Assembly: GCA_018302545.1 (NCBI GenBank)
Contig: JAGVZM010000001.1
Coordinates: 79,033-143,032, forward strand
From: Candidatus Woesearchaeota archaeon
GTDB lineage: Archaea > Nanobdellota > Nanobdellia > SCGC-AAA011-G17 > GW2011-AR18
Length of the DNA stretch: 64,000 nucleotides
Direction of reading: 5' to 3'
This document shows, one piece after another, positions 5,643 to 60,697 of the stretch. The notes beneath the pieces are model-generated. The model saw only the letters and a list, made by a program, of their open reading frames with translations, was not told the DNA's origin and did no database searches. A program made the position numbers and the translations under genes. The first letter of the stretch is position 1. Each line of letters starts with the position of its first letter.

Positions 5643-6533
5643 ATGGAAAAGTATATAGAATTAATAAAAGGGGTAATAAAACTTATTCAATCAATCATTA
5701 ATCCTGTTTATCTTTTAGATGATGTTCCTAATAAATACAACCCAAATAAAAAAACAATATTAAAGAACAATATAAAAAAGAAGATTAATAATGAGGAATT
5801 AAATATTGTTTCCTGGAATATTTTAAGAAATTATAATAACAAAAAAATAAAAGAATCCATTTTAAAGATAATTAAGAATGAAAACCCAGATATAATTATA
5901 ATTCAAGAAGCACCAGCATATAATAATAGCAATTTCTGGGACAATAAAATGTTTAAAAATTTTAATATTTATTATGCTCCACTTCATCAAGTAAAAAAAC
6001 AAACTAAATTTTATAATTTTGCACATTCAGGGCAATTAACCTTATCAAGATATAAATTTACAAAAACAAAAACTTATCAGTTGCCATCAGTAGCAAAACA
6101 AACATTAGGAAAAGATCACATAATAAAAAGAATAGTAATTTATACTCAACTAAAATCAAGAAGTAAAACAATAGGAATTTATAATGTTCATCTTGAAAAC
6201 ATCGCATGGCAAGATGGAAGAAGAAAACAAATAAAATATTTATTAGAAATAATAAACAAGAATAAAGACGACATAATTTTAATCGGAGGAGACTTTAATA
6301 CCTTCTTAGGATTTTTAGAAAGGGGAATATCAACCTTAGAAAAAGAAGGATTTGAAAAATTAATGAAAGGATTTAGATATTTCCCTAGGTTAGATCACTT
6401 TTTTGTTAAAGGATGTAAAGCTAAAAAATTATCATTAAAAGGTTCTGGTTCTGATCATCAACCAATAGGCATAGAAATTAAGGTAAAACGCCCTGACCGG
6501 GAGTCGAACCCGGGTCTTGGCCTTTCTTTGTAA
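5643..6533 (+). CDS. endonuclease/exonuclease/phosphatase (EEP, DNase I-like) family protein
   Basis: EEP motifs present: IVSWNI, IIIIQEA, GGDFN, SGSDHQP. The 3' end, about 45 nt, overlaps a tRNA on the opposite strand. Confidence 0.7.
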   Translation: MEKYIELIKGVIKLIQSIINPVYLLDDVPNKYNPNKKTILKNNIKKKINNEELNIVSWNILRNYNNKKIKESILKIIKNENPDIIIIQEAPAYNNSNFWDNKMFKNFNIYYAPLHQVKKQTKFYNFAHSGQLTLSRYKFTKTKTYQLPSVAKQTLGKDHIIKRIVIYTQLKSRSKTIGIYNVHLENIAWQDGRRKQIKYLLEIINKNKDDIILIGGDFNTFLGFLERGISTLEKEGFEKLMKGFRYFPRLDHFFVKGCKAKKLSLKGSGSDHQPIGIEIKVKRPDRESNPGLGLSL

Positions 6534-6611
6534 ACTCAAAAGCTTTTGATTAAACTTTTTCAAAAAGTTTACTCGACAGGGCCAGGTGATAGCCGTTACA
6601 CTACCTTTGCC
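6489..6611 (-). tRNA. tRNA-Asp (anticodon GUC) with anticodon-loop intron of about 50 nt; 5' acceptor strand not canonical, possibly a further intron (5' exon candidate at 6635..6641)
   Basis: Minus strand shows a D-arm GUAGUGUAACGGCUAUCAC. Anticodon stem is UGGCC/GGCCA flanking loop CUGUCG|intron|A. T-arm is CCGGG UUCGACU CCCGG. Acceptor 3' strand UCAGGGC plus G73 is Asp-like. Expected 5' strand GCCCUGA is absent immediately upstream; GCCCUAA lies about 23 nt further. Confidence 0.6.
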
Positions 6612-6704
6612 AAACTAATCAAAAAGATTAAAGTTTAGGGCAGTGTGTAACACACAGAGCGTTAAAAAAAGAATCAAGAGTCTATTTATAAGTTTTTTTG
6701 TTCA

Positions 6705-10438: not shown

Positions 10439-10595
10439 TCCCCGCTGCGGGATTTGAACCTGCAACCTGGCGGGATCTGCTGTCTGTTTTTCATTTCTAG
10501 TTTTTATACCTAAGATCAAACAGTGGATAACCCTACAGCCGCCCGCTCTACCGCTACTCCCAATGTTTAAAAACATTAGTTTGAGCTAAGCGGGG
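10439..10595 (-). tRNA. tRNA-Tyr (anticodon GUA) with two introns (after D-stem 5' strand, about 24 nt; anticodon loop, about 58 nt)
   Basis: Minus strand reads CCCCGCU UA GCUC [AAACUAAUGUUUUUAAACAUUGGG] AGUAGCGGUA GAGC G GGCGG CUGUAG[intron] CCGCC AGGUU GCAGG UUCAAAU CCCGC AGCGGGG A. The C1-G72 pair plus A73 is characteristic of archaeal tRNA-Tyr. Confidence 0.75.
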
Positions 10596-17414: not shown

Positions 17415-18122
17415 ATGTTAAAAATATATAACACCTTAACAAGAAAAAAAGAAGAATTTGTCCCATTAAAAGGAAAAGAAGTAAAAGCATTTGAATGTGG
17501 CCCCACAGTTTATGATCATGCGCATTTGGGGCATGCAAAAACAGCAATACAATTTGATATTATTATAAAGTATTTAAGATATAAAGGCTACAAAGTATTC
17601 TACATAAAAAACATAACAGATATAGATGATAAAATAATAAAAAGAGCTCAAGAAAGAAAAACAACATGGGATAAAATAGCAAGAGAATACGAATCATCTT
17701 ATCTAGAAGACATGAAAAATCTAGGCGTTGATTCTGTAAACAAATTCCCAAGAGCAACAGACTACATTCAAGAAATTATTTCACAAGTAAAAAGATTAAT
17801 AAAAAAAGGGGTTGCATATAAAATTTCTGATGGTTATTATTTTGACTTAACAAAATTCCCAGATTATGGAAAATTAGCTAAAAGAAATTCTCAAGAAGAA
17901 GGAGACGATATTTCTAGAATAGATGAAAACGAAGAAAAGAGAAATAAGGGAGACTTCTGCTTATTAAAATTTAGCAAGAAAGGCGAACCTTATTGGGAAG
18001 ATATTCTAGAAATTGAAATTTCCGAAAGAGAGTATGAATCTATTATAAAAGAAGCAATCAAAAATAATGATGAAGAATTTTTAAAATTAAATAATATAAA
18101 TAAAACAAGATGGAAAAAATAA
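17415..18122 (+). CDS. cysS: cysteinyl-tRNA synthetase, N-terminal fragment (split gene)
   Basis: CGPTVYDHAHLGHA (HIGH motif) and NITDIDDKII...KGEPYW follow the CysRS consensus up to nt 17999. A 40-codon non-CysRS tail then runs to the stop. Confidence 0.8.
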   Translation: MLKIYNTLTRKKEEFVPLKGKEVKAFECGPTVYDHAHLGHAKTAIQFDIIIKYLRYKGYKVFYIKNITDIDDKIIKRAQERKTTWDKIAREYESSYLEDMKNLGVDSVNKFPRATDYIQEIISQVKRLIKKGVAYKISDGYYFDLTKFPDYGKLAKRNSQEEGDDISRIDENEEKRNKGDFCLLKFSKKGEPYWEDILEIEISEREYESIIKEAIKNNDEEFLKLNNINKTRWKK

Positions 18123-18980
18123 ACTTATGCAAAGGAGGATGTGAAAATAAGGCAATGTATAGTGGTTGGTGCGGTTTAAGATGGAGAAAGAAAAATAAAA
18201 TTAGTGTAAGTTGTCCTAAACTTGAAGAAAAACGAGGAATGGCAATTTCAAGATATAGAATAAAAGAAGCAAAGTTAGGTCTTAACCCAATGCAAAATCC
18301 CGAAATATGCAAAAATAATCATTCGATAGGGAGGAATAAAAAAGCAGCACAGTCGTTAAAAAGATTAGGTAAACTAAAACTTTTACCACAACAAATTGAA
18401 AGTAAATATAAAAGTAAAAAAAGATTAATGAAAATAAGGCAAGCATTACAAAAACTTGTGGCTGAAGGAAAATTAAATCATCAAATTGAATCCCAAGAAC
18501 AGAAAAAATTAAGACATGAAAAAATATCTAAAACTATAACAGAATTATATACCAAAGGATATTATAAAAATTTTACAAAGAAGAAGATAATTTATAACTC
18601 AAAATCAAATGGAAAAGTATACTTTCGTTCTAAATGGGAGCTAGAAGTAGCAAAGCTATTAGATAAGAGTAATATTAAATGGCTATATGAACCATTTGCA
18701 ATACCCTATACAGATGATAATAAAAAGAAGCATAATACAATACCTGATTTTTATTTACCAAAATATAAAAGTATAATAGAGGTTAAAGGAGATAGAAAAG
18801 ATTTTATTTCAAATATTAAAAATAAAGAGAAAGGAATCAGAAAGAAGGGTTTTAATTTTTACTTATGGATGGAAAAGGAAATAAAAATGATTAGAAAAGG
18901 AAATTCCCAAATACTTTTAGAAAACATAAAAAATGTAGAGGTAGAAAATAATGCCTAAAATAAAATTAAAAATAAAATTC
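18000..18980 (+). mobile_element. insertion interrupting cysS (carries a Zn-ribbon/PD-(D/E)xK nuclease-like ORF); homing-endonuclease-like element or intron
   Basis: CysRS similarity stops after ...GEPYWE (17999) and resumes at RPGWHIE (18981). The intervening sequence encodes the 18110..18958 ORF in a different frame. Confidence 0.4.
18110..18958 (+). CDS. Zn-ribbon plus PD-(D/E)xK (DUF559/Vsr-like) endonuclease-domain protein encoded within the cysS interruption
   Basis: N-terminal 4 Cys (CKGGC...WCG...SCP). C-terminal FRSKWELEVAKLLD...YEP...PDFYLPKYKSIIEVKG matches the D...(D/E)xK nuclease core. Overlaps both cysS fragments by 13 and 8 nt. Confidence 0.55.
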   Translation: MEKINLCKGGCENKAMYSGWCGLRWRKKNKISVSCPKLEEKRGMAISRYRIKEAKLGLNPMQNPEICKNNHSIGRNKKAAQSLKRLGKLKLLPQQIESKYKSKKRLMKIRQALQKLVAEGKLNHQIESQEQKKLRHEKISKTITELYTKGYYKNFTKKKIIYNSKSNGKVYFRSKWELEVAKLLDKSNIKWLYEPFAIPYTDDNKKKHNTIPDFYLPKYKSIIEVKGDRKDFISNIKNKEKGIRKKGFNFYLWMEKEIKMIRKGNSQILLENIKNVEVENNA

Positions 18981-19763
18981 AGACCTGGATGGCATATTGA
19001 AGACACAGCAATAACAGAAAAAGAATTAGGACAGCAGTATGACCTACATGGTGGAGGTTCTGGATTAATCTTCCCACATCATGAAGCAGAGATAGCACAA
19101 ATGGAATCCATATCCGGAAAAAAACCATTTGTAAAATATTGGATGCATACAGGATTATTAAATGTAAATTCTGAAAAAATGGCTAAATCTTTAGGAAACT
19201 TTACAACAATTAAAGATGCTTTAAAAAATTATAATAAAGAAACCATAAGATATTTATTTGCATCCTCTAATTATAAAAATCAAACAGACTTTACTCAAGA
19301 ATCATTAGAAAACGCAAAAAACAATGTATCAAAAATAAATGAATTTGTGTTAAACATAAAAAATTATAAATCAAAATCAAAAGATTTTCCAAATACAAGT
19401 TATTTAATCACTGCAACAAAAACAAAATTCGAAGAAGCAATGGATGATGATTTTGAAACTGCAAACGCACTAACAGTTATTTTTAATTTCATAAAAGAAG
19501 TAAATAAATTAATAGCAGAAGAAAAATTATCTACAAAAGATTGTAAAACAATAAAAAAATTTATGGACGAAATAAATTCAATCTTTGGAATTATAGAAAA
19601 AGAAGTAAAGATTCCCAAAAATATATTAGAATTAGTAGAAAAAAGAAACAAAGCAAGAGAAGAAAAAAATTATAGGTTAGCAGATGAAATAAGACAGTTA
19701 ATAGTTGAAGAAGGTTATTATATTGATGATTCAAAATCAGGAACAATAATAAAAAAATTATAA
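18951..19763 (+). CDS. cysS: cysteinyl-tRNA synthetase, C-terminal fragment (split gene)
   Basis: RPGWHIE, HGGGSGLIFPHHEAEIAQ and KMAKSLGNF (KMSKS) are the CysRS catalytic-core second half. Same reading frame as the N fragment. Confidence 0.8.
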   Translation: MPKIKLKIKFRPGWHIEDTAITEKELGQQYDLHGGGSGLIFPHHEAEIAQMESISGKKPFVKYWMHTGLLNVNSEKMAKSLGNFTTIKDALKNYNKETIRYLFASSNYKNQTDFTQESLENAKNNVSKINEFVLNIKNYKSKSKDFPNTSYLITATKTKFEEAMDDDFETANALTVIFNFIKEVNKLIAEEKLSTKDCKTIKKFMDEINSIFGIIEKEVKIPKNILELVEKRNKAREEKNYRLADEIRQLIVEEGYYIDDSKSGTIIKKL

Positions 19764-38361: not shown

Positions 38362-38736
38362 GGCAAGGTACTTAACTACGGATCTATATGGAGATTAAGC
38401 CTTAAAAAGCTAAATTTCAGAGATTCTGAGGAAAGTCCGCCCACTACCTGTGTCTAATGACCTAGGTCCCAGTTTGGGGGTTGCTTACTTTGTAAGTTCC
38501 AGTAATGGAAGGCAACTTTAAAGAAACGAAACGCCCTATAAAATTGGAATGATGTAGCGAAGATTTTGGTGACAAAATCAAGATAACCTGCTGACGTCTT
38601 TATAGGAAACGATGAAACGAAAGATCCCAACCAGTGCAAGTCTTCGAGACGCTTAGTAGAATGTTAAGACAAAGTATCGCGAGAACTGCAAAATAGTTTT
38701 CGTTTGGCTTTGACAAAAGGCGGCTTATTCCTTGCC
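38362..38736 (+). ncRNA. rnpB: RNase P RNA
   Basis: P4 5' strand GAGGAAAGUCCGCCCAC and P4 3' strand ACAAAAGGCGGCUUAU (consensus ACAGAA.CCGGCUUA). P1 terminal helix GGCAAGG...CCUUGCC. Confidence 0.7.
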
Positions 38737-38746
38737 TAAAATATTT

Positions 38747-50653: not shown

Positions 50654-51310
50654 ATGAACTTAAGAGAATTAAATTTAAAATTAACAAGAGAGTCTTTGGT
50701 AAAGGAAACTTCAAGAGATGTATTAATAATCCAAACAATTCATACAATAGATGAATTAATAAAGATAATAAATAGATTAATAGCAAATCTAAGAGAGAGA
50801 TATGGTTATTATGCACCAAGAGCAGCAAAAGAAGAAAATGCTGAAAAATTATTAAATATAATAAATAGAAAAATTAAAGAAGATATAGGTCTTAATTTAG
50901 ATGAAGTAGATTTAGCCTCTATAATAGAACTATCAGAAGAGATAAAGAGATTAATAAATTTAAAGGAATCACAAGAAAAGTATTTAGAAAAAATAACAGA
51001 AGAAATATGTCCAAGACTAAAGAAAACAGCAACATCATTAATAGCTGCTAGGTTAGTTGATAAGGCAGGTTCACTTAAAAATTTAGCTAAATTACCTTCA
51101 TCAACAATACAAGTTTTGGGTGCAGAAAAAGCATTATTTAGGCACCTTAAAACAAAATCAAAAGCCCCAAAATTTGGTATAATATTCGCACACCAAAATA
51201 TAAGTAACTCACCTCAAACAGAAAAGGGGAAGGCAGCAAGAAGACTAGCAGCAGAAATTTCAAAATCTACAAGAATAGATTATTTCAGCAAAGATAAGGA
51301 GGAGGTGTAG
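50654..51310 (+). CDS. nop5: Nop5/Nop56/58-family protein (NOP domain only, minimal form)
   Basis: VLGAEKALFRHLKTKSKAPKFGIIFAHQNI is the NOP-domain signature. 218 aa, so it lacks the usual N-terminal domain. Upstream of fibrillarin. Confidence 0.8.
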   Translation: MNLRELNLKLTRESLVKETSRDVLIIQTIHTIDELIKIINRLIANLRERYGYYAPRAAKEENAEKLLNIINRKIKEDIGLNLDEVDLASIIELSEEIKRLINLKESQEKYLEKITEEICPRLKKTATSLIAARLVDKAGSLKNLAKLPSSTIQVLGAEKALFRHLKTKSKAPKFGIIFAHQNISNSPQTEKGKAARRLAAEISKSTRIDYFSKDKEEV

Positions 51311-51317
51311 ACTACTA

Positions 51318-52412
51318 ATGAGGGATGACAAAACCGAAAGGTTTTTAATAGTAGGGGGAGATAGAAATGAAAGTAGGGGGGTAGTTACAGATATGAGTAG
51401 AAGAAGACATAGAAGAGATAATAAGAGTTATAATCCAAGAAGTGTAAGATCCACATTAAATAATCAAGATTTCTTATCAAAACTATTACTAAAAGACCCT
51501 ACTGAGTATACTGAAGATCTTAGAAGAAGATATGCGATATCATCAATAAAAGCAGAAGAACTAACTCCAGAAAGAATAGAAGAGATAAGAGGAAATACAA
51601 CTTTTATTTATGTAATAGGCAACAAGTTAGCAGGAAAATCCAAATTAAGAGATAGAATCTACGCAGGTCTTTCAGAAGAAGACTATTCAGTTCTACCCTT
51701 AAGAGCTTCAAAAGATGCAAGCGAATCAGATACTGCAATAAGAAGACAAACACTAAAAAGACAAGAAAAAGGAGAAGTAGCTTGGGTACAAGCTGTTGAA
51801 GCTTTAAGAAATGAAGGTTTATCAGCATTAGAAAAAAAAGCATTACCTTTCTTAATGGGAACATCTAAAAGAAAAGCAGTTTTATTTGATAGACATCCCT
51901 TAATAGATACTTTAGTAAAACAGTATTTAGAAGGAGCAAACCTAGAATCAGTAGCCCAATATTTAAGAGGAAGAGACACAAAAACAGAAACAGAATTAAG
52001 TTGTTATATAAAACCAGACATTGTAATATTATTAACTTGTAATCCAAGAGAGATAATGTATAGAGAAATAATGAGAAGTAGTCATAGTAGAGAGGGAATA
52101 TCTGATGATTTCGGATCAGATTTCTTAGAAAAAACTGAAAGAGAAAAAAGAGCTTATCTAGAATTATCTGGAATAAATCCAAATACGGGAAAAATGGAAC
52201 CAGATAGTAGAATATATCCTTGTAGAATCTTCCGTTATGAAGACACAAGTAATTCTAGTATAGATTACAAAAACGAAGCAGAAGCAAGAAGAAAATTAGA
52301 AGAAGATGGCATTGAAAGAACATCAAGGATATTTAATGAAGTAATACTTCCAAATATGAATAAGGGTGGACAAAAAAACGGAAGAACTAAACCTTTAGGA
52401 TACACTGCATAA
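51318..52412 (+). CDS. P-loop kinase-like protein (thymidylate/nucleoside kinase-like core) with R-rich N-terminal and extra C-terminal regions
   Basis: Walker A VIGNKLAGKSKL (GxxxxGKS). AVLFDRHPLIDTLVKQYL resembles the dNMP-kinase DRY/DRH motif. Has 90 aa of basic N-terminal extension. Sits between nop5 and flpA, 8 nt after nop5. R/E/S-rich composition. Confidence 0.5.
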   Translation: MRDDKTERFLIVGGDRNESRGVVTDMSRRRHRRDNKSYNPRSVRSTLNNQDFLSKLLLKDPTEYTEDLRRRYAISSIKAEELTPERIEEIRGNTTFIYVIGNKLAGKSKLRDRIYAGLSEEDYSVLPLRASKDASESDTAIRRQTLKRQEKGEVAWVQAVEALRNEGLSALEKKALPFLMGTSKRKAVLFDRHPLIDTLVKQYLEGANLESVAQYLRGRDTKTETELSCYIKPDIVILLTCNPREIMYREIMRSSHSREGISDDFGSDFLEKTEREKRAYLELSGINPNTGKMEPDSRIYPCRIFRYEDTSNSSIDYKNEAEARRKLEEDGIERTSRIFNEVILPNMNKGGQKNGRTKPLGYTA

Positions 52413-52442
52413 ATTTATTAATCTATAAAAATCAAAATCCTT

Positions 52443-53117
52443 ATGAAATTAGAAAAAACAAAATATGAAGGAATTTATTTCTTGCAAAATAATAGAAGAG
52501 GACTAATAGTAACAAAAAATTTAACACCTGGAAAATCCTTTTTTAATGAAAAAGTAATAGAAATAAATAATGAAGAGTATAGAAATCTAGATCCAACAAG
52601 ATCTAAATTAGCTGCAGCAATAGTAAAGAAAATATCTTTAGTACCAATAAAACAACAAGACAAAATATTATACTTAGGAGCCTCTCATGGTTATACTCCT
52701 TCTTTTCTTTCAGATGTGATAGGAGAAAAAGGAATTTTATTTTGTTTAGATTTCGCTCCTAGAGTTGTAAGAGATTTATTGTTTGTATGCGAAGAAAGAA
52801 AAAACATGATTCCATTATTAGCAGATGCAAATAAACCAGAGACATATAAAGATAGAATAACAGAAGTAGACCTAATATACCAAGATCTAGCACAAAAAAA
52901 TCAAGTAGAAATTCTAATAAAAAATTTACAATTCTTAAAGAAAAAAGGATATGCGATAATAGCAATAAAAGCAAGAAGCATAGATGTAACTAAATCCCCA
53001 AGGATAATATATAAAGAAACTGAAAATAAATTAAATCAATATTTAAAAATAATCGACAAAAAAGAACTAGATCCTTTGCAAAAAGATCATTGTATCTTCA
53101 TATGTCAAAAAAGATAA
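52443..53117 (+). CDS. flpA: fibrillarin-like rRNA/tRNA 2'-O-methyltransferase
   Basis: SKLAAAIVKK, KILYLGASHGYTPSFLSDVIGEKG and DLIYQDLAQ are fibrillarin SAM-binding motifs. Confidence 0.9.
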   Translation: MKLEKTKYEGIYFLQNNRRGLIVTKNLTPGKSFFNEKVIEINNEEYRNLDPTRSKLAAAIVKKISLVPIKQQDKILYLGASHGYTPSFLSDVIGEKGILFCLDFAPRVVRDLLFVCEERKNMIPLLADANKPETYKDRITEVDLIYQDLAQKNQVEILIKNLQFLKKKGYAIIAIKARSIDVTKSPRIIYKETENKLNQYLKIIDKKELDPLQKDHCIFICQKR

Positions 53118-59930: not shown

Positions 59931-60128
59931 ATGGTAATATCCCTCCAAAATATTATGAACATAAATGCAATATTAAAAATTGTTATAGGTCTTATTTTGA
60001 TATTAGTTGCAGTTTATTCTATTATTGTTTGGTGGTTAGCAGACTTCTTAGTATTATTAAAAGGAGGCATACCTGTACTTGTATTCTTGATAGGAATAGT
60101 TTTCTTATTATTAGGATTTGAAGATTAA
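59931..60128 (+). CDS. small membrane protein (65 aa), tentative
   Basis: Two TM helices. 2 nt upstream of the M50-like protease gene. Confidence 0.35.
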   Translation: MVISLQNIMNINAILKIVIGLILILVAVYSIIVWWLADFLVLLKGGIPVLVFLIGIVFLLLGFED

Positions 60129-60130
60129 TA

Positions 60131-60697
60131 ATGGCTTTTATATCTTTAATAGAGATAATTCATATAGCGATTGTAATTCTAGGAGTAGGTTATATCTTTA
60201 CAGGATTATTACCTCTAAGAATAACAAAAAATGTTCTAGACTCTTACACTAAAAAATTTAACTGGAAAGAATTCTGGTTTGCTTGTTTAGTTGCTTCCCC
60301 AGGAATAATATTACATGAAATGGCGCATAAATTCGTAGCTCTAGGATTAGGATTACAAGCACTCTTTCAAGTATCATATTTTGGATTAGCATTAGGAATA
60401 ATCTTAAAAATATTAAACACAGGATTCATAATTTTAGCTCCTGGTTATGTATTAATATCAGGAGCTACAACCTTAGAGAGTATTTTAACTGCTGCTGCAG
60501 GACCACTAACTAACCTTATTTTATGGGTAGCAGGTTTCCTGATAATAAAACACTCAAAAAAATTAAGTAGAAAACAAGCAATATTTTGGAGCCTTACAGC
60601 TGAAATAAATAAGTGGTTATTCATTTTTAACATCCTACCCATACCTCCATTAGACGGATCAAAGATTTGGATACCCTTATTTCAAATGATATTCTAG
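60131..60697 (+). CDS. site-2-protease-like membrane metalloprotease (M50 family, minimal)
   Basis: HEMAHK (HExxH) within a TM helix and NILPIPPLDGSKI (LDG motif) are characteristic of M50/S2P peptidases. Confidence 0.65.
   Translation: MAFISLIEIIHIAIVILGVGYIFTGLLPLRITKNVLDSYTKKFNWKEFWFACLVASPGIILHEMAHKFVALGLGLQALFQVSYFGLALGIILKILNTGFIILAPGYVLISGATTLESILTAAAGPLTNLILWVAGFLIIKHSKKLSRKQAIFWSLTAEINKWLFIFNILPIPPLDGSKIWIPLFQMIF

Follow-up and report, generated by a model that had tools for sequence, protein, structure and literature searches.

Where does the tRNA-Asp(GUC) gene on the minus strand of contig JAGVZM010000001.1 obtain the 5′ strand of its acceptor stem? In the 64,000-nucleotide (nt) stretch of this contig that we analyzed (hereafter the window, to which all coordinates refer, the exons and introns on the minus strand being numbered from high to low), the remaining parts of the tRNA can be read directly. 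An earlier note on this DNA had described a D-arm, an anticodon arm, a T-arm, the Asp-like 3′ acceptor strand UCAGGGC and the discriminator G73, and all of them were confirmed on the minus strand. In our reading of the sequence, the D-arm is GUGU/AACGGCUA/UCAC (6601-6586), the anticodon arm is UGGCC CUGUCG followed by a 50-nt insert and A GGCCA, and the T-arm is CCGGG UUCGACU CCCGG. The 3′ acceptor strand is located at 6496-6490 and G73 at 6489. Once the insert is removed, the anticodon GUC lies in the 7-nt loop CUGUCGA, which together with G73 identifies the gene as a tRNA-Asp; both characters are shared with its two closest relatives (see below). The note had also observed that the expected complementary 5′ strand is not next to the D-arm, and indeed the seven nt adjoining U8, GCAAAGG, fail to pair with UCAGGGC at three central positions.

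Standard tools do not report the gene. ARAGORN with default settings returned zero tRNA calls over the whole 64-kb window, and the Rfam tRNA model scored 28.6 bits on 6489-6610, where the gathering score is 29. The T-arm consensus sequence GGTTCRANYCC occurs twice in the 64 kb, compared with 0.14 expected occurrences. The intron mode of ARAGORN proposed a tRNA-Ser(tga) at 6488-6626, which we rejected for its poor stem and wrong anticodon. Directly 3′ of G73, a run of four T on the minus strand (6485-6488) is a candidate transcription stop.

Our analysis indicates that the missing strand is probably encoded in cis: we consider it likely that the locus is one tRNA-Asp(GUC) gene of an AT-rich DPANN-type archaeon, composed of three exons and two protein-spliced introns with bulge-helix-bulge (BHB) motifs. 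Upstream of the tRNA body, the sequence GCCCUAA is located at 6641-6635 and is followed by the hairpin UAAUC-UUUUU-GAUUA, both as the note had reported. We joined the first k nt of GCCCUAA to the (7-k) nt preceding U8 and compared all possible values of k. The sole value giving seven acceptor pairs was k = 5 (GCCCU+GG), with the pairs G-C, C-G, C-G, C-G, U-A, G-C and G.U; thus, the spliced acceptor stem GCCCUGG/UCAGGGC contains six Watson-Crick pairs and G7.U66. Joining the entire GCCCUAA (k = 7) results in an A6.C67 mismatch.

Accordingly, exon 1 is GCCCU (6641-6637), corresponding to tRNA positions 1-5, and it is followed by the 31-nt intron 1, AAACUUUAAUCUUUUUGAUUAGUUUGGCAAA (6636-6606), at position 5/6 inside the acceptor stem. 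Exon 2 (6605-6574) extends from G6 to G37, GG UA GUGU AACGGCUA UCAC C UGGCC CUGUCG, and includes the rest of the 5′ acceptor strand, U8 and A9, the D-arm, the 5′ strand of the anticodon stem and CUGUCG. The 50-nt intron 2 (6573-6524) occupies the canonical position 37/38. Exon 3 (6523-6489) extends from A38 to G73, A GGCCA AGAC CCGGG UUCGACU CCCGG UCAGGGC G, and contains the 3′ strand of the anticodon stem, the variable loop AGAC, the T-arm, the 3′ acceptor strand and the discriminator; CCA is not encoded. When both inserts were removed in silico, ARAGORN called the 72-nt product as a tRNA-Asp(gtc) with a normal cloverleaf: a 7-bp acceptor stem, 5-bp anticodon and T stems, and a D-arm with three Watson-Crick pairs and U13.U22. 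A construct carrying GCAAAGG as the 5′ strand was rejected by the same program. The predicted mature sequence across the 5/6 junction (U6637-G6605) is GCCCU-GGUAGUGU.

In archaeal tRNA precursors, the BHB motif consists of a 4-bp helix with a 3-nt bulge on either side, and the intron is paired with the first two bases of the anticodon (PMC4090602). We took cleavage to occur after the second base of each bulge, a reading of our own that fits the three canonical 37/38 introns we examined, and scored all pairs of possible cut sites for the central helix (H) and for the helices h and h′. A strict hBHBh′ motif is located exactly at the 5/6 junction (GCCCU/GG), with cuts after 6637 and after 6606 (H 4/4, h 2, h′ 2). 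Its central helix is formed by U6642-A6608, G6641-C6609, C6640-G6610 and C6639-G6611, that is, by the intron sequence GGCA (6611-6608) with U6642-C6639, and its bulges are C6638,U6637/A6636 and A6607,A6606/G6605. The outer helix begins with C6643-G7 and A6644-U8 and continues, after a bulged A9, with seven further pairs to G6651-C16. This helix between the 5′ leader and exon 2 has 10 bp with one bulge, and its p-value was ~0.003 in 200,000 shuffles; the inner helix is located within the intron. The neighboring junctions scored far lower, with H 1/4, h 0 and h′ 0 at 6/7 (GCCCUA/G) and H 0/4, h 0 and h′ 2 at 7/8 (GCCCUAA/UA). The latter is the placement proposed in the note; hence, its suggestion of an intron between the acceptor strand and the D-arm stands, but the intron begins two bases earlier, at the junction that completes the stem and carries a strict motif. 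Moreover, the note had counted this insert as a candidate third intron, but it is the second intron of the gene, not a third. At the 37/38 intron, the scores were H 3/4 (with a G34.A mismatch), h 5 (the anticodon stem) and h′ 8. Based on base-pair counting and energy prediction, both exon-intron junctions of the tRNA-Asp gene are thus predicted to carry a BHB motif.

Strict BHB-like pairings are common in this AT-rich sequence (10 in 230 nt). Since such pairings are not rare, the relevant test is the joint occurrence of a split acceptor strand and a motif at the same junction. We shuffled the 97-nt upstream region 300,000 times: a split acceptor of any kind, containing no more than one G.U pair, appeared in 2.6% of the shuffles, and only three combined a split acceptor with a strict BHB motif at the same junction (~1e-5). 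The rarity of this combination and the excess of the T-arm consensus over expectation argue that the locus is more than a chance arrangement.

The comparison with related genes is consistent with this reading. A scan of reference genomes identified two useful relatives only, which carry the closest tRNA-Asp genes: L003, from the Woesearchaeota metagenome-assembled genome (MAG) CAYVWZ010000026, and L004, from the Nanoarchaeota MAG JBBSWJ010000029; a third sequence, L002, was a bacterial tRNA. L003 is intron-less and L004 has only the 37/38 intron; neither contains an acceptor-stem insert. The spliced 72-nt product aligns gap-free and collinearly with both. The 18 nt from U8 through the D-arm are identical in the three genes, which also have in common the anticodon loop sequence CUGUCG, G73 and a GCCC start. 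In L003 and L004, the acceptor strand GCCCAAG directly abuts UAGUGU, which fixes the numbering. At positions 5-68, 6-67 and 7-66, the relatives have A-U, A-U and G-C, whereas the window gene has U-A, G-C and G.U. Pairs 5-68 and 6-67 have therefore changed on both sides, indicating that the 3′ strand co-evolved with the upstream U5 and with G6, and not with the contiguous GCAAAGG.

This co-change argues against simple decay, in which a non-functional tRNA-Asp would have a degenerate 5′ strand, a fortuitous upstream GCCCU and a fortuitous BHB pairing, with a functional tRNA-Asp located elsewhere. Decay would account for the resemblance of GCAAAGG to GCCCAAG of the relatives, for the score of the contiguous gene just below the Rfam threshold and its absence from the default ARAGORN output, and it could draw on the frequency of BHB-like pairings in this AT-rich sequence given above. 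Nevertheless, all other elements are intact, the D-arm is identical to that of the relatives, and the damage is limited to three adjacent bases. Positions 67 and 68 match the split strand instead of the contiguous one, the joint chance of split acceptor and strict motif is of the order calculated above, and the locus is identical in three independent assemblies. We therefore regard decay as unlikely.

The region upstream of exon 1 contains a TATA-like box, CTTATAAA (6685-6692, minus strand), preceded by an A-run, which is a candidate promoter of the tRNA-Asp gene. From the end of this box to G6660 there are 24 nt. In L003, L004 and the tRNA-Tyr gene of the window (described below), the TATA box is separated from position 1 by 25, 23 and 26 nt, respectively, and based on these distances transcription probably starts near 6660, leaving a 19-nt leader, GCUCUGUGUGUUACACACU (6642-6660, minus strand), before G1 (6641). 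The box is thus ~19 nt farther from G1 than in L003, L004 and the tRNA-Tyr gene, as a required leader would predict. Within the predicted leader, bases 6651-6643 pair with G7-C16 to form the outer helix of the 5/6 motif, and U6642 provides the first pair of its central helix. When the transcript from G6660 to the T-run was folded, the minimum free energy (MFE) structure (-56.9 kcal/mol) already included the outer helix. In the same structure, the leader sequence GCUCUG (6660-6655) forms pairs with C67-C72, which C6661 can extend by a pair with G73. CGCUCUG (6655-6661) has its complement in CAGGGCG, the 3′ acceptor strand with the discriminator, and lies exactly at the place where the promoter spacing puts position 1. 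The leader (GCUCUGU GU GUGU UA CAC) also bears a loose resemblance to the 5′ part of the tRNA itself and may be the remnant of a partial duplication.

These leader sequences suggest another reading, in which the true exon 1 would be GCUCU(G) at 6660-6655, at the transcription start itself, and a 50-nt intron (6655-6606) would contain GCCCU as a look-alike, giving the acceptor strand GCUCUGG. The position of G6660, 24 nt past the TATA-like box, agrees with that of position 1 in L003, L004 and the tRNA-Tyr gene, GCUCUG has the pairing with C67-C72 just described, and the mature tRNA would depart from the preferred sequence at position 3 only. However, this exon has no usable splice motif (H 3/4, h 0 and h′ 0 at 5/6, with 6/7 and 7/8 worse), it would place U3.G70 where the relatives have C3-G70, and it leaves both the 10-bp helix between leader and exon 2 and the perfect UGCC/GGCA helix unexplained. 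We consider it distinctly unlikely.

Several observations weigh against the three-exon gene with an intron at 5/6. The first is the presence of the second acceptor-like 5′ strand, GCUCUG, exactly at the expected position 1. The full BHB conformer is not the MFE structure: its energy is -55.9 to -55.3 kcal/mol, less favorable than the MFE of the full transcript by 1.0-1.6 kcal/mol, and the central-helix pairs of the 5/6 motif have ensemble probabilities of 0.11-0.16 each. The result also depends on the context, as a truncated 55-nt context favors a competing register by 6 kcal/mol. When the bulges are held strictly to 3 nt, the inner helix h′ has only two contiguous pairs, and the central helix of the 37/38 intron contains the G.A mismatch mentioned above. 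No relative with a 5/6 intron was found, and hence the BHB helices have no support from covariation. Finally, Pfam scans of 60 open reading frames (ORFs) of the window did not detect a tRNA-intron endonuclease.

Searches for further copies recovered the same population. The same contig is present in the European Nucleotide Archive (ENA) assembly ERZ27254754, where it is k141_674647, and among three other copies, from which no covariation could be drawn, two (L104 and L105) are identical and one (L103) breaks off. L103 is a 690-nt contig from another sample (ENA ERZ28563694, ANAN16-1 scaffold_126560), whose positions 648-690 correspond to window 6641-6633 and beyond. Its promoter, leader, exon 1 and first four intron nt (GCCCTAAAC) are identical to those of the window, but beyond GCCCTAAAC its final 32 nt (AGCATC...) are entirely different, owing either to a chimeric assembly or to a real break within the 5/6 intron. 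A metagenome scan with the pattern GCCC-N(10-40)-TAGTGTAAYGGYTATCAC returned 92 loci, all of them unrelated tRNAs (mostly of the Gln/Glu types) with a chance GCCC upstream, and a scan of viral sequences returned a viral tRNA array only. A synteny search with a response regulator encoded in the window (see below) recovered only its own cluster with 99% identity, on identical contigs of the same population. In a corresponding search with the EEP protein encoded by the overlapping ORF (see below), the closest homologues were ~60% identical and had no adjoining tRNA.

The split gene that the note had offered as an alternative, in which a 5′ piece from another locus would form the BHB in trans, as in Nanoarchaeum equitans or in Aeropyrum tRNA-Asp, is very unlikely and not needed: although a split tRNA-Asp(GUC) exists in Aeropyrum and Thermosphaera (PMC3218864) and the L103 divergence after four intron nt could be an intron breakpoint, a fitting 5′ piece with a complete BHB is found in cis, on the same strand and 31 nt upstream, a single TATA-like box was seen, ahead of both this piece and the tRNA body (none was seen between exon 1 and exon 2 by eye, no dedicated promoter scan having been made), there is no GC-rich leader of the type described for 3′ halves, and the divergence of L103, which covers only the final 32 nt of a short scaffold, may have arisen in assembly.

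For the cis-encoded gene with an intron at 5/6, we propose the following processing pathway. Transcription would start near G6660, ~24 nt past the TATA-like box, and produce a precursor with the 19-nt leader. In this precursor, the leader sequence GUUACACAC would pair with G7-C16 and U(-1)G1C2C3 with the intron GGCA, so that C4,U5/A and A,A/G6 bulge out. A splicing endonuclease would cut both bulges and a ligase would join U5 to G6. Because the 5/6 motif includes the leader, this splicing step should precede the removal of the leader by RNase P. While G1-C3 are engaged in the motif, the 5′-terminal GCUCUG may occupy the 3′ acceptor strand, and CCA would be added after splicing. A stronger version, in which splicing has to come before RNase P cleavage, GCUCUG substitutes for the acceptor strand and retains the 3′ end up to the release of exon 1, and L103 is maybe a gene broken within the intron in a sister population, is speculative, and we think it improbable as a whole.

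The 3′ end of the gene overlaps a convergent ORF on the plus strand (5643-6533), which encodes, by homology, an EEP (Exo_endo_phos) protein. The overlap comprises 45 nt (6489-6533) and takes in exon 3 entirely, together with 10 nt of the anticodon intron. The 21 EEP homologues in our alignment all end a few residues past the catalytic SDHxP motif, near IEIKVK of the window protein, while the additional tail of ~13 amino acids (aa), ending in RPDRESNPGLGLSL, is not conserved and is the antisense translation of the acceptor strand, the T-arm and the end of the intron. The note had regarded the reading of the ORF through the T-arm and acceptor as unusual; the overlap is real but trivial, arising from the absence of an earlier stop codon and not from a functional arrangement. 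In a relative, L099 (GCA_964373955.1, CAYJXA010000026.1, 2254-3942), an SfLAP/DsbD-like gene directly abuts the EEP gene. In the window, two response regulators, an ATP-cone protein and the tRNA-Asp gene are located between the SfLAP/DsbD-like and EEP genes, and this block may have been inserted in this lineage specifically. The 185-aa regulator of the block was the query of the synteny search described above, which recovered its own cluster only.

The other match to the T-arm consensus belongs to a tRNA-Tyr(GUA) gene (10439-10595, minus strand), which was likewise missed by default ARAGORN and by Rfam at the gathering threshold. This gene has two introns: a D-loop intron of 27 nt (10580-10554, minus strand; H 4/4, h′ 8), whose motif is seen in the MFE structure, and a 37/38 intron of 58 nt (10532-10475, minus strand; H 4/4, h 5). 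ARAGORN called the doubly spliced 72-nt product as a tRNA-Tyr(gta), with C1-G72 and A73. Both tRNA genes within the 64 kb thus contain one non-canonical and one canonical intron each. At a low threshold, ARAGORN proposed four additional tRNAs, which we rejected; by their coordinates, three are largely inside ORFs, and the one that we inspected (60048-60253) is AT-rich and lacks real arms.

The window has ~29% G+C and encodes housekeeping genes of archaeal type, including a split RNA polymerase subunit B, thermosome, Nop5, fibrillarin, eIF2-gamma, L15e and TFE; since the closest tRNA-Asp genes are those of L003 and L004, a DPANN-type archaeon is the most likely host. The window also contains an archaeal RNase P RNA (38395-38739, plus strand; Rfam RF00373, 91.5 bits), which has several large insertions relative to the family consensus. 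The cysteinyl-tRNA synthetase gene (cysS; 17415-19763, plus strand) is split: the ORF 17415-18122 corresponds to Pfam tRNA-synt_1e positions 2-182, and the ORF 18951-19763, in the same frame, to positions 189-300 plus DALR_2. Between the two halves, a 282-aa ORF in another frame (18110-18958) has a weak match to Phage_endo_I (E 1.6e-6, below the cutoff). We looked for a BHB motif at the boundaries of the cysS split and found none; the arrangement could be a split gene or the insertion of a mobile endonuclease. At 50654-53117 (plus strand), a short Nop5-like ORF of 218 aa ends with the Nop domain, and a 364-aa ORF without a Pfam match lies between it and the fibrillarin gene.

Disrupted archaeal tRNA genes are already known, and the tRNA-Asp locus fits the cis-encoded multi-intron class, in which its acceptor-stem site is rare. 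Non-canonical and multiple BHB introns have been described in tRNA genes of Thermoproteales, ARMAN-2 and other archaea, with up to three per gene (PMC4090602, PMC3239211, PMC8450103), and position 3/4 has been cited as an extreme case of an intron within the acceptor stem (PMC4090602; PMC3239211). Our locus resembles the multi-intron genes of Thermoproteales, ARMAN-2 and DPANN archaea, the class addressed by SPLITS and tRNAscan-SE 2.0, in that BHB introns occupy the canonical 37/38 position and a non-canonical site and the gene is missed by standard finders; tRNAscan-SE 2.0 extends its candidates by 60 nt, which catches introns near the ends (PMC8450103). Unlike in those genes, the site is 5/6, which one review does not include among its positions (the comparison covers this review and not the primary catalogue of Sugahara 2008), the 5′ leader provides part of the central and outer helices, and the host is an AT-rich DPANN-type archaeon and not a crenarchaeon.

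The split tRNAs of Aeropyrum, Thermosphaera and Nanoarchaeum equitans share with this locus the BHB-dependent joining of pieces (PMC3218864), and the split tRNA of the first two is the same isoacceptor, tRNA-Asp(GUC) (PMC3218864). However, the Aeropyrum/Thermosphaera tRNA-Asp is split at 37/38 (other tRNAs elsewhere) and the pieces of all these split tRNAs are encoded at separate loci with their own promoters and complementary leaders, whereas the pieces in the window belong to one transcription unit. The permuted tRNAs of Thermofilum pendens are similar in their low covariance-model score, distant promoter and missing piece between promoter and body (PMC3218864). In T. pendens, the upstream piece is the 3′ half and the order is permuted; in the window, the upstream piece is the first five nt of the 5′ strand, and the exons follow the normal order of the mature tRNA.

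An annotation made with standard tools would list tRNA-Asp and tRNA-Tyr as absent from this DPANN-type genome, as ARAGORN finds none in the 64 kb and the Rfam tRNA model remains just under threshold. In DPANN lineages, including Woese- and Pacearchaeota, L3-loop endonucleases, raised levels of tRNA gene disruption and incomplete predicted tRNA sets have been reported (PMC5829648), and our results fit the published view that some of these lineages tolerate heavy disruption of their tRNA genes. The tRNA-Asp gene adds a predicted acceptor-stem intron site at 5/6 outside the Crenarchaeota, with a splice motif derived from the 5′ leader. If the break in L103 were real, a cis-encoded intron and a split gene would coexist in one species, a snapshot of the origin of a split tRNA gene. 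If confirmed by RNA data, the locus would provide a defined substrate for the specificity of DPANN splicing endonucleases and for the order of splicing and RNase P processing.

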